64,000 nt of DNA, taken from the NCBI GenBank assembly GCA_965242925.1, contig CBDEUM010000039.1:1-64000 (forward strand), read 5' to 3'. A program made the translations under genes and the position numbers. Below the pieces are notes generated by a model. The model did not search any database. It was not told the DNA's origin and saw nothing but the letters and a program-made list of their open reading frames with translations. Positions 24,029-29,153 of this stretch are shown in pieces (positions within the stretch are counted from its first letter, which is position 1; each line of letters starts with the position of its first letter). This DNA comes from Roseibacillus sp. (GTDB taxonomy: Bacteria > Verrucomicrobiota > Verrucomicrobiia > Verrucomicrobiales > Akkermansiaceae).

Positions 24029-26737
24029 ATGAACCCCTTCCCTGTCTTCATCCTTCCCTTTCTTGTGGCCTCTTCTGCCCTCGTAGCCGACGACTGGAAA
24101 CCTGGGAAGTCCCCGAGGTCCATCCCCCCCGGGATGTTCAAGATTGACCCGTCCCTGGAAGTGACCGTCTGGGCCACCACTCCTCATCTCTACAACCCGA
24201 CCAACATGGACATCGACCACGCTGGCCGGGTCTGGGTCGCGGAGGGGGTCAACTATCGGGGCAACAAGGGGCAGAGAGCCGCCGGCGACCGGATCGTAGT
24301 CCTGCAGGATACCAATGGGGACGGAAAGTGTGATCGTTCCCACACCTTCGTCCAGGAGACCGGCTTCATCGCCCCCCTCGGAGTCGCCGTCTTCGACAAC
24401 GTCGTCTACGTCTCCCAGCCTCCGGACCTCCTCGCCTATACCGACGTCAACCGCGACCTGAAATTCGACCCTGCGGTCGACAAGCGGGAGGTCATCCTCA
24501 CCGGCTTCAATGCTATCAACCACGATCACGGGCTGCACTCCCTCATCGCCGGACCGGAAGGAAAATTCTATTTCAACAACGGAAACTGCGGCGCGGTTTT
24601 CACCGACAAATCAGGCAAGACCTTCTACCTCGGAGGCACCTATGGCAGCCGCGGTCCGAACTGGCCGGCGGATCACCTGGCCACCACCGGGAAGACCTCC
24701 GGCGATGGCCATGTCTGGATTTCCGGGTTTGCCGTGCGCATGAACCCGGATGGATCCGGGGCCGAAATCGTCAGCCATGGATTGCGCAATGCCTACGAGC
24801 AGATCCTGACCTCCTTCGGAGACATGTTCCAGAATGACAACGACGATCCGCGGGGCTGCCGCACCTCCTTTGCCCTTGAATACGGCTGTGCCGGCTACTT
24901 CACGCGCGATGGCAGGCAGCGCAACAAGGCGGTGCGGCGACCCGGGCAGCCCTATGCGCGGATCCACTGGCGACAGGATGACCCGGGCACCATGGATGCC
25001 GGCGACGTCTACGGGGGCGGCGCTCCCACCGGCATCACCTTCTACGAGAACGGCGCCCTCGCCGAAAAATGGAACGGCACCCTGCTGAGCTGCGACACCG
25101 GTCTCAACACCATCCTCGGCTACCATCCAAAACCGAAGGCCGGGACCTTTGAACTCAGGCGCTTCGAATTCCTCACCAGCAACCCGGAAAAGAAATACGA
25201 CGGATCCGACTTCGTGGGAGGAGGTCCGAAGAACAAGACTATCGACAAGGTGGCTCCCAGCTTTTTCCGGCCCAGCGACGTGACGGTGGGACCGGACGGC
25301 GCGATCTACTTCTGTGATTGGTTTGACCCGCGAGTCGGAGGCTCCGGTCACATGGACGGTTCCTTCTCAGGCACCATTTACCGGATCGCTCCCCCCGCCT
25401 TCACCCCGGTCGTCCCAGGAATCGACCTCACCACCACCGCCGGACAGATCACCGCCCTGCGCAGCCCGGCGGTGAATGTCCGCCATCTCGGCTTCCGCGC
25501 CCTCCGGGACGCAGGAGCCCGGGCCTTCCCTGCGGTAGCGGAGTTGCTCAAGGACAAGAACAAGTGGATCGCCGCCCGGGCCGTTTGGCTCCTCCCCTAC
25601 CTCGGAGAAGAGGGGCTGGGAACCTGCCTCTCTCTGTTGAAGGATCAGCGCTCCCCACAGCGCGTTCTCGCCTATCGCGCCCTGCGCCGGGCTGGCCACA
25701 ACATGGTGCCCCACGCCCGCCACTTGGCGGCCGATCCCTCCCCGCAGGTGCGCCGCGAGATCGCCCTTTCCCTGCGCGACCTCCCCGCTGCCAAAACGGC
25801 TGACATCTTCGTGGAACTCGCCCGGCGCTGCGATACCACCGACAAGAATTCGGTGGAAGCCATCGGACTCGGGGCCGCCAACCAGGAAAGTGTGATCTGG
25901 AGTGCGATCAGGGAGGGCCTCAAGCCAGGGACTGCCGGGGAGTGGCCCGAGAGCTTTGCGCGGTTGACCTGGCGCCTGTGGGGGGCCGCCTCCCTCGACG
26001 ATCTCAAGGCCCGGGCCCTCGACCTCTCGCTCACCCTCGATCAGCGGAAATTCGCAGTCGAGTCCATCGCCTTCATCGACGACGCCCGGGCCGCCCGCGT
26101 GATGCTCAAACTGGCTGCCACCGGATCCCCGGTCAAGGGCGAGGCCACCGCCTGGCTCCTGCGCAATGCCGCTGGCGAATGGGCCAGATACGATCTCGCC
26201 AAGGGACTCAAGGACCAGGGAATCTACGATCCGGAATCTGTCGTGATCAGTGCGGCCCCCGTGCCCACACCCCCGGACCGCGCCCCTGCTGTCGAAGAGA
26301 TCCTCAAACTGAAGGGAGACCCCTCCCGGGGCAGGACCGCGGCCGCCCGCTGTATCATCTGTCACCAGGTCGACGGACAGGGAAATGACTACGGACCCAA
26401 CCTCAGGGGGTGGGCCCGGAACCAGCAACTGGAGGTCATCATCCGCGCCATCGCGGATCCCTCCGCCGAGATCGCACAGGGCTACAAGGGCACCGAGATT
26501 GTCCTCAAGGACGGCGGCCTCATCCACGGAATCGCCTTCAACAACAGCGACCTTCACCGGGATGATTCGCCCCCGGTCGTCATCCAGTCCGCCGGCGGTG
26601 TAACCCAGCTCATCCCAAAGGGCCGCATCAAGGACCGCAGGGACTTCAAGCGCTCCCTCATGTATGACCCTGTGACCCTGGTCCTCAAGGCCCAGGACAT
26701 TGCCGACCTCGCCGCCTGGCTCCGGACCTACCGTTGA
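24029..26737 (+). CDS. PVC-type haem-binding dehydrogenase-like protein
   Basis: NPTNMDIDHAGRVWVAE, FRPSDVTVGPDGAIYFCDW, HEAT repeats, GDPSRG...CIICH...GPNL...DLAAWL. Likely ATG at 24029. Confidence 0.88.
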   Translation: MNPFPVFILPFLVASSALVADDWKPGKSPRSIPPGMFKIDPSLEVTVWATTPHLYNPTNMDIDHAGRVWVAEGVNYRGNKGQRAAGDRIVVLQDTNGDGKCDRSHTFVQETGFIAPLGVAVFDNVVYVSQPPDLLAYTDVNRDLKFDPAVDKREVILTGFNAINHDHGLHSLIAGPEGKFYFNNGNCGAVFTDKSGKTFYLGGTYGSRGPNWPADHLATTGKTSGDGHVWISGFAVRMNPDGSGAEIVSHGLRNAYEQILTSFGDMFQNDNDDPRGCRTSFALEYGCAGYFTRDGRQRNKAVRRPGQPYARIHWRQDDPGTMDAGDVYGGGAPTGITFYENGALAEKWNGTLLSCDTGLNTILGYHPKPKAGTFELRRFEFLTSNPEKKYDGSDFVGGGPKNKTIDKVAPSFFRPSDVTVGPDGAIYFCDWFDPRVGGSGHMDGSFSGTIYRIAPPAFTPVVPGIDLTTTAGQITALRSPAVNVRHLGFRALRDAGARAFPAVAELLKDKNKWIAARAVWLLPYLGEEGLGTCLSLLKDQRSPQRVLAYRALRRAGHNMVPHARHLAADPSPQVRREIALSLRDLPAAKTADIFVELARRCDTTDKNSVEAIGLGAANQESVIWSAIREGLKPGTAGEWPESFARLTWRLWGAASLDDLKARALDLSLTLDQRKFAVESIAFIDDARAARVMLKLAATGSPVKGEATAWLLRNAAGEWARYDLAKGLKDQGIYDPESVVISAAPVPTPPDRAPAVEEILKLKGDPSRGRTAAARCIICHQVDGQGNDYGPNLRGWARNQQLEVIIRAIADPSAEIAQGYKGTEIVLKDGGLIHGIAFNNSDLHRDDSPPVVIQSAGGVTQLIPKGRIKDRRDFKRSLMYDPVTLVLKAQDIADLAAWLRTYR

Positions 26738-26788
26738 ATTCCTGCCCGTCCTTGCAGCCTGTCAATGCCCTGTGGTAAAGGCCTTGCA

Positions 26789-27086
26789 ATGCAAAACCCA
26801 ATCCTTGCCGTCACCATTGCCGGACTCCTCGCCACCGCCCCCCATTCCGGGGCCTGAACCGATCGCGATTTCTGGATTCGACGTAGATGTGGACGCGGGC
26901 CAGACAACCTCCAGGGTTGCAATCTCCTTTCCTACCGTCGAGGGGGTCGAATACTCCGTTCCATACTCAGTGGATCTGCAGAACTGGAAATTTCTCGAAA
27001 TAATTACAGGTTCCGGAGGAGTAGTTCAGAGCTTCCATACAAGAGAAGAAAAGGAGCTCTACTTCAGGATCCTGGCAGGAAACTAA
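26789..27086 (+). pseudogene. Small secreted protein made of a verrucomicrobial C-terminal-type domain, with a one-base frameshift near 26838-26856
   Basis: ATG 26789 gives a signal peptide MQNPILAVTIAGLLATAPHSGA then TGA. Removing one base joins it to EPIAISGFD...ISFPTVEGVEYSVPYSVDLQNWK...LYFRILAGN. Confidence 0.55.
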
Positions 27087-27295
27087 CGAACTACTGTTAG
27101 CTGCCGGTCAGCCCAAGGGGCTTCCAATCGGTTCGCACCCGCCGTATCGAAGGCACGCTGTTGGACCCCGGAGCCCCGAAAACAGGGAATCGAGACCAAG
27201 GCAATCCCTCTTCGTATTCAGGAGTCATTTTATCACTCGACCCCCTCCAAAAGCCCACGATTCATTAAACAATCTTCTCCACCATCTCCCTATTT

Positions 27296-27327
27296 AACTC
27301 ATAACACTCTTGTAATGAGTTTGTTAT
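27296..27327. promoter_or_regulatory. Inverted repeat in the AT-rich region upstream of the HMA gene, possible operator
   Basis: AACTCAT-N12-ATGAGTT (27296-27321) overlapping ATAAC...GTTAT (27301-27327). Confidence 0.35.
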
Positions 27328-27429
27328 CGTGAATTCGGGCAAATGCAGGGAATTCCAACATGCGATTGAGATTTGGGTTTCCCCACGTATTATTCCGCGC
27401 GGATGGTCAACCCCATCTGTTCTAGAACA

Positions 27430-27741
27430 ATGAAAGTACACCACCTCATCGCCTTCTTGGCGGTTATGCTGTTGGGCGTCGCCTATGGTGCGGACGTCAA
27501 ATACGAGGCCACCTTCACGGGTGTCACTTGAGCCGGTTGCAAGAAGAGCGTCAGTTCGTCGCTCAAGAACCTCGCAGGCTTCAAAACTATCGAGATCAAG
27601 GCCGGTAAGAAGGCTAAGACTCAGTCCGTGGTCGTGGTAGCCAAAGAAGGCATCAGCAAGAAAGATGTTGTCAAGGCCCTCGGTAAGACAGCCAAGCGCT
27701 TCGTCTGCCAGGACTGGAAGCCGTCCAAGGACAAGGGTTAA
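27430..27741 (+). CDS. Secreted HMA/MerP-like metal-binding protein with in-frame UGA (putative selenocysteine, UxxC motif), 103 aa
   Basis: Hand translation MKVHHLIAFLAVMLLGVAYGADVKYEATFTGVT[TGA]AGCKKSVSSSLKNLAGFKTIEIKAGKKAKTQSVVVVAKEGISKKDVVKALGKTAKRFVCQDWKPSKDKG*. TGA at 27529-27531 aligns to the first Cys of the HMA GMxCxxC motif. Hairpin after the TGA; terminator only after the TAA. Confidence 0.82.
27529..27583 (+). promoter_or_regulatory. Putative bacterial SECIS element
   Basis: Upper stem GAGCG(27546-50)/CGCTC(27560-64), U-U mismatch, C-G pair and AGUUC loop (G at second position) starting 21 nt after the UGA. Lower pairings GCC/GGC and UGC/GCA. Confidence 0.65.
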
Positions 27742-27782
27742 AGAATCCTGATTCCCAAAGCTTTTACGCGTAAAGCTTTTTA

Positions 27783-27818
27783 AAAACGCCCCGCGCTCTT
27801 ACCGAGCCGGGGCGTTTT
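27783..27818. terminator. Bidirectional intrinsic terminator
   Basis: AAAACGCCCCG-c-GCTC-ttacc-GAGC-CGGGGCGTTTT between the convergent HMA gene and dgt. Confidence 0.85.
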
Positions 27819-27830
27819 AGTATTCTCCCC

Positions 27831-29153
27831 TCAGCCAACCAGGTCCCCAATCGATCCAAATCCCGGCGAGAACAATCGCTGGTACATGCGCACCGCGTAG
27901 CCATCGGTCATTCCAGCCAGAAAGTCACAGATCAGGCGCGCCCGTTCACCAACCGTCTCGACCCTTTCGATTTCCTCCGCCTGCTCGGCAGGGAGCACTT
28001 GAAACATCTGGCCGTCAATCGGCCGGCCCTCCACGTAACGGCGATGGTAGAGCTCCCAGAGCCGGCGCAGCATGAGACTTCCCTTATGCTCGAGCTGCTT
28101 GAGTTGAGGAGAGAGAAAAACAACCTCAAAGGCCAGCCTCTTGAACACTTCGCTTTCCGCCTGTCTCGCCCCGTCAACCACGATACGATAGCGGTAACGA
28201 TTGCTCTTCCCGCTGAGGAAATTTCTGTCCTCTTCCACTCTCACCGCCTTGACGTAAAGTCCGATTCGGTGGCCCACAAAGGAATCGATGCGGCCGCGAC
28301 TGATCGCACGGATGAGATCTCCGAGTGAACTCTCTGCCCCAACCTCGACCTCTCGCTTCTCCGCCCATGCTCGCACCGATTCTTCGGTCAGGAACCCCGC
28401 CCGCACACTGTCGGCCAGGTCGTTGAGCGAGTAGGCCGTGTCATCGGCCCAGTCCATGATCTGGCATTCCACTGACTTGAACCCGTCCCGCGCCTTGCCC
28501 GGCGCCAGTTCCGGCGGAAACTCCTGTTCTCCCAACGCCCAGCGGACGTAGCGATTCTGCTCGTCGTAGACGAAGTGGTTCGCGGGGGCCTTGCCGCCGG
28601 CTTTCCCAAGATCGCCCCATATCGACTTGTACTTGAGCACCCCATCGAGGAAGGCCCGCGAGGGATCCATCCCGCTCCTGCGCTGCGAGAAGATGCGCTC
28701 GGTAAGCAGACGCAGGGTCTGGGCGTTACCCTCGAACCCGCCATGGGGCGCCATGAAGTGATTCAGAGAACGTTCCCCGGCGTGACCGAAGGGCGGATGG
28801 CCCAGGTCGTGGGAAAGGCACACCGCTTCCACGAGGTCCGCGTCAATGGTGTGGTCGGGCGAGAAATCCTCGGTAGAGGCCAGGAGCCACGCACAAATGG
28901 ACCGGCCAATCTGGGCAACCTCAAGCGAGTGGGTAAGCCGGGTGCGGTAGAAATCGTACTCCCCGCTCCAGAACACCTGCGTCTTGTTCTGGAGCCGCCG
29001 AAAGGCGGTCGTGTGCAGGACCCGGTCACGATCAACCTGGAAGGGGCTCCGGAAATCGCCCCCCTCGATCCCGGCTCCCGAGGATCTCTCGACATCAAAT
29101 TCCTGGTAGAAGCGGTTTCGCACTGCCCATTGGTGGCCTCCCGCGGTGCTCAT
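27831..29153 (-). CDS. dgt: Deoxyguanosinetriphosphate triphosphohydrolase (HD domain)
   Basis: RSPFQVDRDRVLH, FRRLQNKTQV, RTRLTHSLEVAQI, HDLGHPPFGHAGE, FEGNAQTLR, DFLAGMTD. Confidence 0.95.
   Translation of the reverse strand: MSTAGGHQWAVRNRFYQEFDVERSSGAGIEGGDFRSPFQVDRDRVLHTTAFRRLQNKTQVFWSGEYDFYRTRLTHSLEVAQIGRSICAWLLASTEDFSPDHTIDADLVEAVCLSHDLGHPPFGHAGERSLNHFMAPHGGFEGNAQTLRLLTERIFSQRRSGMDPSRAFLDGVLKYKSIWGDLGKAGGKAPANHFVYDEQNRYVRWALGEQEFPPELAPGKARDGFKSVECQIMDWADDTAYSLNDLADSVRAGFLTEESVRAWAEKREVEVGAESSLGDLIRAISRGRIDSFVGHRIGLYVKAVRVEEDRNFLSGKSNRYRYRIVVDGARQAESEVFKRLAFEVVFLSPQLKQLEHKGSLMLRRLWELYHRRYVEGRPIDGQMFQVLPAEQAEEIERVETVGERARLICDFLAGMTDGYAVRMYQRLFSPGFGSIGDLVG

Follow-up and report, generated by a model that had tools for sequence, protein, structure and literature searches.

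Small stand-alone and exported HMA proteins are known in two forms that invite comparison with the gene described here. In the CopZ/Atx1 type (NF033795, NF047957, TIGR00003), the HMA domain stands alone, and CopZ is located in the cytoplasm. MerP (TIGR02052; PDB accession no. 1afi and 1osd) combines a signal-like N terminus with a single HMA domain carrying a GxxCxxC site. HMA selenoproteins are likewise a known kind, and selenium in heavy-metal-binding contexts has already been catalogued: in the portion of PMC13188914 compared here, the 119 families of Table 1 include a P-type ATPase with a UxxC motif, a MerT-type protein, and the metal-binding (seleno)protein NF041115 (“putative mercuric reductase”), listed as UxxU with two Sec. 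The cation-transporting ATPase E1-E2 (TIGR01525) and the MerT/CopZ fusion selenoprotein NF045683 also place Sec in a heavy-metal transport context. A first-pass annotation of the present locus had invoked Sec-containing MerP/HMA-like proteins as precedent. The ATPase UxxC motif, NF041115, and NF045683 are real precedents of this sort, whereas the “MerP” selenoprotein of the GOS paper (PMC2398784, in the part compared) is represented by a 33-aa fragment, present in two copies, whose motif differs.

The window analyzed here, a 64,000-nucleotide stretch of a Roseibacillus sp. contig (CBDEUM010000039.1), holds a gene that shares some features with each of these systems (Table 1). Like MerP, its product has a signal-like N terminus and a single HMA domain with the GxxCxxC arrangement; unlike MerP, it carries Sec at the first Cys, scores 16 bits against a TIGR02052 cut-off of 92.55, has no mer operon, and belongs to a family that is order-wide rather than patchy. 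It shares the stand-alone domain with the CopZ/Atx1 models, which provide its best NCBIfam match (E value of 7e-5), but it stays far below their cut-offs (22.9 versus 91 bits for NF033795 and 13.4 versus 62 bits for TIGR00003) and, given its hydrophobic N terminus, is predicted to be exported; moreover, a P1B ATPase was found in just 4 of 19 congeners. The small-selenoprotein model NF041115 is weakly matched by 38 of 47 family members (best E value, 2e-7), yet the window protein has UxxC and reaches 21 bits against a cut-off of 95. TIGR01525 and NF045683 describe membrane transporters, whereas the window domain stands alone behind its signal-like peptide; 6 of the 47 family members match NF045683 (best E value, 4e-5). 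The window protein is far below the cut-off of every NCBIfam model matched, and family members match those models weakly (best E value, 4e-8).

A stand-alone exported UxxC HMA protein is absent from the 119-family table in the part of PMC13188914 compared, and no such family was found in the compared parts of PMC9312934, bioRxiv 2022.07.06.499078, PMC1976440, PMC13326102, PMC12013277, PMC5029168, and PMC4807772 (including Table S9). The family is thus unlisted within the literature compared. Its distinguishing features are that the domain stands alone and is predicted to be exported, that it occurs order-wide with switching between Sec and Cys, and that it has multi-Sec forms. This adds a widespread, small, and putatively exported selenoprotein family, cut by gene callers, from the order Verrucomicrobiales, which goes unmentioned in the main texts of the selenoprotein surveys compared.

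Gene structure, fold, and transcription signals

Re-reading confirmed the gene structure proposed at first: 103 codons from the ATG at 27430 to a TAA at 27739-41, with the TGA as codon 34 (context GVT-U-AGC) followed by 69 sense codons. The expectation that standard gene callers would miss the gene was also borne out, as the database protein P0004 ends at the TGA and P0002 has W in its place. No table-11 ORF of at least 60 aa overlaps 27430-27741. Residues 3 to 17 form a hydrophobic stretch (Kyte-Doolittle 11-residue maximum of 2.9, by hydropathy only), and a hydrophobic window of at least 1.8 lies upstream of the motif in 105 of 106 Sec loci, which agrees with the export signal claimed earlier and suggests that the protein is secreted or exported. 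The protein had also been called very basic. This holds for the window protein (19 Lys, pI 9.9) but not for the family, in which net charges span -9 to +14, with 26 of 106 Sec domains being acidic. Close to the C terminus lies a third Cys, Cys93 (27706-27708), which is present in 13 of 106 Sec loci, namely, those most similar to the window gene.

Table 1. Features of the exported UxxC gene and its surroundings (positions in the window)
Feature	Position	Strand	Basis
Promoter-like site TTGAGA, 16-nt spacer, TATTAT	27366..27393	+	Pattern match and genus loci
Hairpin in the 5' leader with a 7-bp stem and a variable loop; probable start of the transcript	27400..27419	+	Fold and genus loci
12-bp perfect palindrome directly before ATG	27418..27429	.	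Genome and genus loci
Coding sequence, 103 aa with Sec34	27430..27741	+	ORF reading and homologues
Signal-peptide-like N terminus, aa 1-21, no lipobox Cys, cleavage site inferred	27430..27492	+	Hydropathy, low pLDDT
HMA (beta-alpha-beta-beta-alpha-beta) domain, aa 22-98	27493..27723	+	AlphaFold2, structural and profile matches
UGA Sec codon, first position of UxxC	27529..27531 (Cys37, 27538-40)	+	Homologue alignment and contigs
In-frame SECIS hairpin, 21 nt downstream of the UGA; stem of 7 bp including one U-U, loop of 5 nt with G second	27546..27564	+	Fold and covariation
Two hairpins between gene and dGTPase; probable two-way terminator	27757..27819	+	Fold, z -5.7

The neighbors of the gene are a DUF7133/cytochrome c gene, a short ORF without a Pfam match, and a convergent dGTPase gene on the minus strand (27831-29153; TIGR01353 above cut-off). 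The locus thus lacks a mer or cop operon, as had been stated, and among 61 relatives MerT was found in one and MerA over its cut-off in none. Upstream, a strain-variable piece (26700-27094), of which some 300 to 350 bases are absent from the contigs of two RNA libraries and from the closest relative, contains a 128-codon ORF without a Pfam match that, by eye, resembles the C-terminal domain of verrucomicrobial surface proteins.

The AlphaFold2 model, built on a 47-sequence alignment, has a pLDDT of 87 (94 to 97 over aa 21-100 and low for aa 1-20) and the order E-H-E-E-H-E from residue 22. The 15 best VIA structural matches are all HMA domains (Z 8.0 to 9.1), the best being 1fvq (Z 9.1, rmsd of 2.3 over 72 residues), and many of the top matches are HMA domains of rice immune receptors. 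Foldseek gave no match at an E value of ≤0.001, with HMA domains among its top rows. At the sequence level, the family profile matches MerP 1afi with an E value of 2e-7, as well as CopZ and P1B metal-binding domains, and Pfam HMA (PF00403) is matched with an E value of 4e-4 at 21.1 bits, below the gathering cut-off of 24.8. In the predicted structure, the HMA fold proposed from the residue pattern is thus shown for the mature 82-aa protein, with Sec34 and Cys37 in the loop/helix position of a metal-binding CxxC.

The gene appears to have its own promoter, in line with the monocistronic arrangement of the first-pass annotation. The promoter-like site (10 of 12 matches) is the sole match in 27050-27900, where 0.6 are expected by chance, and its -35 box lies at -63/-64 from the ATG in all 15 of the genus loci examined, whereas the length of the spacer varies. 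The leader hairpin (-8.6 kcal/mol, z -1.95) has conserved arms and a variable loop in the genus loci, and one RNA-library contig begins at 27403, a weak hint of the transcript start. The palindrome directly before the ATG has one exact genomic copy and two further copies with one mismatch, and it is perfect in 13 of 15 genus loci and changed in L026 and L028. With just three sites within one mismatch and alterations in two genus loci, it is a doubtful regulon operator and may belong to the translation start. A one-mismatch copy lies directly before the ATG of a CRTAC1-like TGA gene (G000, C12:88002), which may be chance. Downstream of the gene, a strong terminator had been described. The double hairpin is indeed strong (z -5.7 for 27742-27830), but a strict terminator scan called no sites at the locus. 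An RNA-library contig covers the gene at a depth of 200 versus about 10 beside it, although contig depth cannot rank genes, and the sole contig piece of run X18 spans 27411-27729, which hints weakly at a transcript of this gene alone.

The in-frame UGA, its hairpin, and the Sec machinery

The UGA at codon 34 is almost certainly a selenocysteine codon at which Sec is inserted, to judge from the conservation of the UGA and its alignment with Cys, the contrast in the SECIS between Sec and Cys forms, and the Sec machinery of the lineage; the selenoprotein claim of the first-pass annotation is upheld on the same grounds. A homologue was present in 29 of 61 genomes searched, including 15 of 19 congeners, and the TGA form is kept in 15 of 19 congeners. 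Looking for homologues with TGA or Cys at codon 34, as had been proposed, we found 36 places, 21 with one TGA and 15 with no internal stop; Cys occupies the site in all nine of the stop-free places that were read. The selA gene was detected in 18 of the 19 other genomes that carry the TGA form (the one miss being 70% complete) and in two of nine genomes with stop-free forms alone, counts in which kin are not independent. A word-index search for homologues gave three matches among five candidates. In the contigs (rather than raw reads) of four runs from four studies, comprising three RNA libraries and one DNA run, no letters other than TGA are listed; where a habitat is given for DNA runs with the gene, they are metagenomes of marine origin or seawater. 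Near-identical proteins in named records carry the labels Roseibacillus sp. or Akkermansiaceae.

The constraints on a consensus bacterial SECIS are given in the legend to Fig. 2A of PMC13188914, in the part of that paper compared. The window hairpin agrees with all four of them, with a 7-bp stem, a 5-nt loop that has G then U at its position 2, a spacing of 21 nt, and -8.2 kcal/mol, the energy agreeing on the short fragment only. On that fragment (27546-64) the fold has a z of -4.2, whereas in 47-nt and 72-nt contexts (z of 0.34 and 0.27, respectively) it is not more stable than shuffled sequences, so that the case for the SECIS rests on conservation. Across 17 distinct sequences, 89% of the cells pair and three of the seven pairs changed on both sides; 4 of 500 shuffles were as high, and slid controls were 25 to 45% paired. 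The contrast between the two forms is marked in sets that were chosen regardless of the hairpin and that each include one duplicate: six or seven of the seven pairs and the loop G are present in 42 of 42 Sec matches, whereas the Cys matches have a mean of 2.7 pairs and the loop G in 0 of 43. Pair counts from a larger, 109-locus pattern-scan set were excluded as evidence, because the search pattern held hairpin bases. Genome-wide, a hairpin in the same register follows 971 of 141,297 TGA triplets (0.7%).

The Sec machinery, whose four components had been named as a check, was recovered in part. The genome has a tRNA-Sec (59 bits versus a cut-off of 47), selB over cut-off, selD over cut-off with its own in-frame TGA, and also selU, but selA was not found in the assembly, which is 89.9% complete. 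Regions of 20 kb and 14 kb around selA of two close relatives gave no matches in the assembly, while control loci match at 87 to 95%. The 20-kb region, from the closest relative, includes a pheS-like gene, and the L20 and pheS genes adjoining selA in another congener have no match in the assembly either. Because the whole region with pheS and L20, including essential neighbors of selA, is missing while the controls match, the absence of selA is, as judged by these sequence comparisons, most probably an assembly gap. For this reason, and with nothing over cut-off for SepSecS, Sec synthesis independent of selA was rejected.

The missing selA and the W that some database proteins have at this codon (one has R) would favor a different reading, in which the TGA arose by nonsense mutation, is an error of the assembly, or has been reassigned to Trp. 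We regard this reading as very improbable and already refuted by the conservation of the TGA, which is shared by the 19 other genomes mentioned above, and by the SECIS contrast. Furthermore, selA is missing together with its region, the codon is aligned with Cys and not with Trp, and runs behind TGA stops are no longer than those behind TAA or TAG. UGA-to-Trp recoding in particular was rejected, since TGA is used as the commonest ordinary stop (196 of 494 long ORFs).

Distribution and ancestry of the family

Sampling of 251 genomes of the order Verrucomicrobiales recovered the family in 150. Within three taxonomic families of that GTDB order, it is present in 71 of 71, 52 of 71, and 25 of 31 genomes, and in the window genome's own family it occurs in 1 of 72 other genomes; sampling of the phylum gave 2 of 301 genomes. 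One taxonomic family (f5) has the gene in 71 of 71 genomes as CxxC, with selA in none of the five tested. A cultured strain with the Cys form is Phragmitibacter flavus (homologue P0018). A pattern scan with one genome per species yielded 109 loci, 97 of which score over 40 bits on the family profile. The other 12 comprise at least eight shorter, more MerP-like exported UxxC domains and, among the matches listed, three chance hits. The MerP-like UxxC domains come from Planctomycetota, Deltaproteobacteria, Spirochaetaceae, and Acidobacteria records.

Six distinct loci feature two tandem domains with two Sec (L124, L140, L158, L194, L210, and L211) and one features three (L152), a count that leaves out the artefact L154 and the duplicate L216. 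Every repeat of these tandem forms keeps its own UGA and hairpin.

A tree was built from 63 domains at 56 hand-picked loci and is weak, since it is based on 83 columns. In it, a branch with 100/100 support separates a Verrucomicrobiales-centered group from the MerP-like group, and two Cys groups are nested among the Sec rows. From the root of this tree, we infer that Sec is the ancestral residue and that Cys returned at least twice. Natural Sec/Cys pairs on one well-understood, 80-residue fold offer a clean test of selenium at a metal-binding site.

Function of the UxxC site

Taking the fold and motif together with the distant Sec relatives in mer operons, we consider a stand-alone periplasmic soft-metal carrier or buffer the most likely function, with a probability somewhat better than even. 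The gene would be transcribed from its own promoter and the product exported by its signal peptide, and a soft metal ion, Cu(I) first and possibly Hg(II), Ag(I), or Cd(II), would be bound between selenolate and thiolate. Such a protein could act outside the mer resistance pathway, for example by holding copper or handing it to cuproproteins of the envelope. A selenol has a lower pKa and a higher affinity for soft metals than a thiol, and selenium might keep the site reactive in an oxidizing compartment.

The relatives in question are exported, MerP-like UxxC proteins with the same SECIS register (L142, L160, L180, L182, and L213), the first four of which lie among mer genes: between merA (519 bits, cut-off of 454) and a merB-like gene in L142 and L160, behind a near-identical merA-like gene in L180, and behind merR-like and merT-like genes in L182, where the merT and merF labels at mer loci are by reading of the ORFs. 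These four are candidates for a selenocysteine MerP inside true mer operons, and together with the multi-Sec tandems they make the mercury-selenium question testable with defined proteins. Other neighborhoods also include metal genes. The two-Sec form L124 lies among CzcA/CzcB-like and ArsR genes, a SCO1/SenC gene is directly upstream on the same strand in three Cys loci (L041, L042, and L068), and a ZnuA-like gene adjoins the Sec gene in 9 of 78 loci; two Cys homologues carry the automatic IMG name “copper chaperone CopZ.”

Several observations speak against a metal role. MerT and MerA are mostly missing from the 61 relatives. The Sec proteins of the mer operons share just 28% identity over 60 aa and fall outside the Verrucomicrobiales clade, and the HMA fold is also used without metal. 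MerR/CueR-type promoters have spacers of 19 to 20 nt, unlike the 16-nt and variable spacer found here. The commonest conserved neighbors are rhodanese, thioredoxin-like, selU, and NifS-like genes, none of which are metal genes, so that the neighborhoods of close relatives point as much to thiol, sulfur, or selenium chemistry as to a metal role. A heavy-metal P1B ATPase was not found in the window genome (about 90% complete), and the few congeners that have one compare with 15 of 19 for the gene. The absence of this ATPase from 15 of 19 congeners is in itself unusual, as 13 of 14 control genomes have one over cut-off.

Part of this evidence would suit a redox or chalcogen-carrier site, in which the UxxC pair of an exported selenoprotein cycles between selenenyl-sulfide and reduced states, or carries persulfide or selenide, its partners in the cell envelope being exported rhodanese and thioredoxin-like proteins. 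Among 29 Cys loci, 12 are directly preceded on the same strand by a gene for a secreted rhodanese, and 6 adjoin a gene for a secreted thioredoxin-like protein. Exported thioredoxin-like UxxC candidates that share the hairpin apex number at least three in the genome, and metal partners are mostly missing; in addition, UxxC selenoproteins are mostly regarded as redox proteins in the part of PMC13188914 compared. Yet the rhodanese neighbor appears in none of 30 Sec loci, the fold is HMA and not thioredoxin, and a metal site in the periplasm would likewise depend on a thioredoxin partner to stay reduced, so we view this as a possible but rather unlikely account. It is improbable that the domain is a compact Sec scaffold serving as an exported store or carrier of selenium, of which animal selenoprotein P would be a loose analogue. 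Tandem forms would raise its capacity, which fits the six two-Sec loci and the one three-Sec locus with a hairpin per UGA, and selenium genes do lie nearby: among 78 Sec loci, 15 have the gene head-to-head with selU (MnmH above cut-off) and 14 have a NifS-like gene in the vicinity. However, the association with selU probably reflects a single event in a single clade, selenium genes often cluster, and the retention of CxxC in f5, where selA was not found, argues that the job of the family does not need selenium. In L111 and L114, the Sec gene lies head-to-head with selU alongside a NifS-like gene and a nickel superoxide dismutase-like gene with a signal-like N terminus.

Returning to the soft-metal carrier, it is tempting to speculate that bacteria hold an unlisted class of exported, selenium-based carriers of this kind, order-wide, Sec-ancestral, and tandem in Verrucomicrobiales, with a related Sec form taking the place of MerP in mer operons of other phyla. 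We consider this extended proposal doubtful. If true, the capture of copper or mercury in the periplasm of abundant marine bacteria would be set directly by selenium supply, and Hg-Se binding would be no side reaction but a function encoded in the genome.

The genome holds further candidates for in-frame TGA codons. Thirteen paralogues with FG-GAP and ASPIC/UnbV domains (CRTAC1-like) share the position of a TGA, in most cases together with a hairpin whose apex is the same (in G000, C12:51079, C12:89967, C13:132387, C13:146637, C17:49805, C20:16543, C22:99699, C28:4493, C29:2749, C30:153375, C30:361056, C34:106360, and C37 near 1000). CRTAC1-like genes were found with one TGA in every match listed, in 22 of 41 genomes. 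Such selenoprotein candidates appear in Table S9 of PMC4807772 and are absent from the 119-family table in the part of PMC13188914 compared. A first genome-wide TGA screen was too noisy, and tighter screens are heuristics; as the tighter screen omits the window gene and selD, it gives no size for the selenoproteome. Its candidates in G000 are C14:613464, C14:614227, C22:23539, C12:64342, C14:245880, C14:407258, C38:184014, C14:482221, and C13:118163. C12:64342 encodes an exported UxxC protein without a Pfam or NCBIfam match, and the candidates include three exported thioredoxin-like UxxC proteins, AhpD-like, peroxiredoxin-like, and arsenate-reductase-like proteins, and others.
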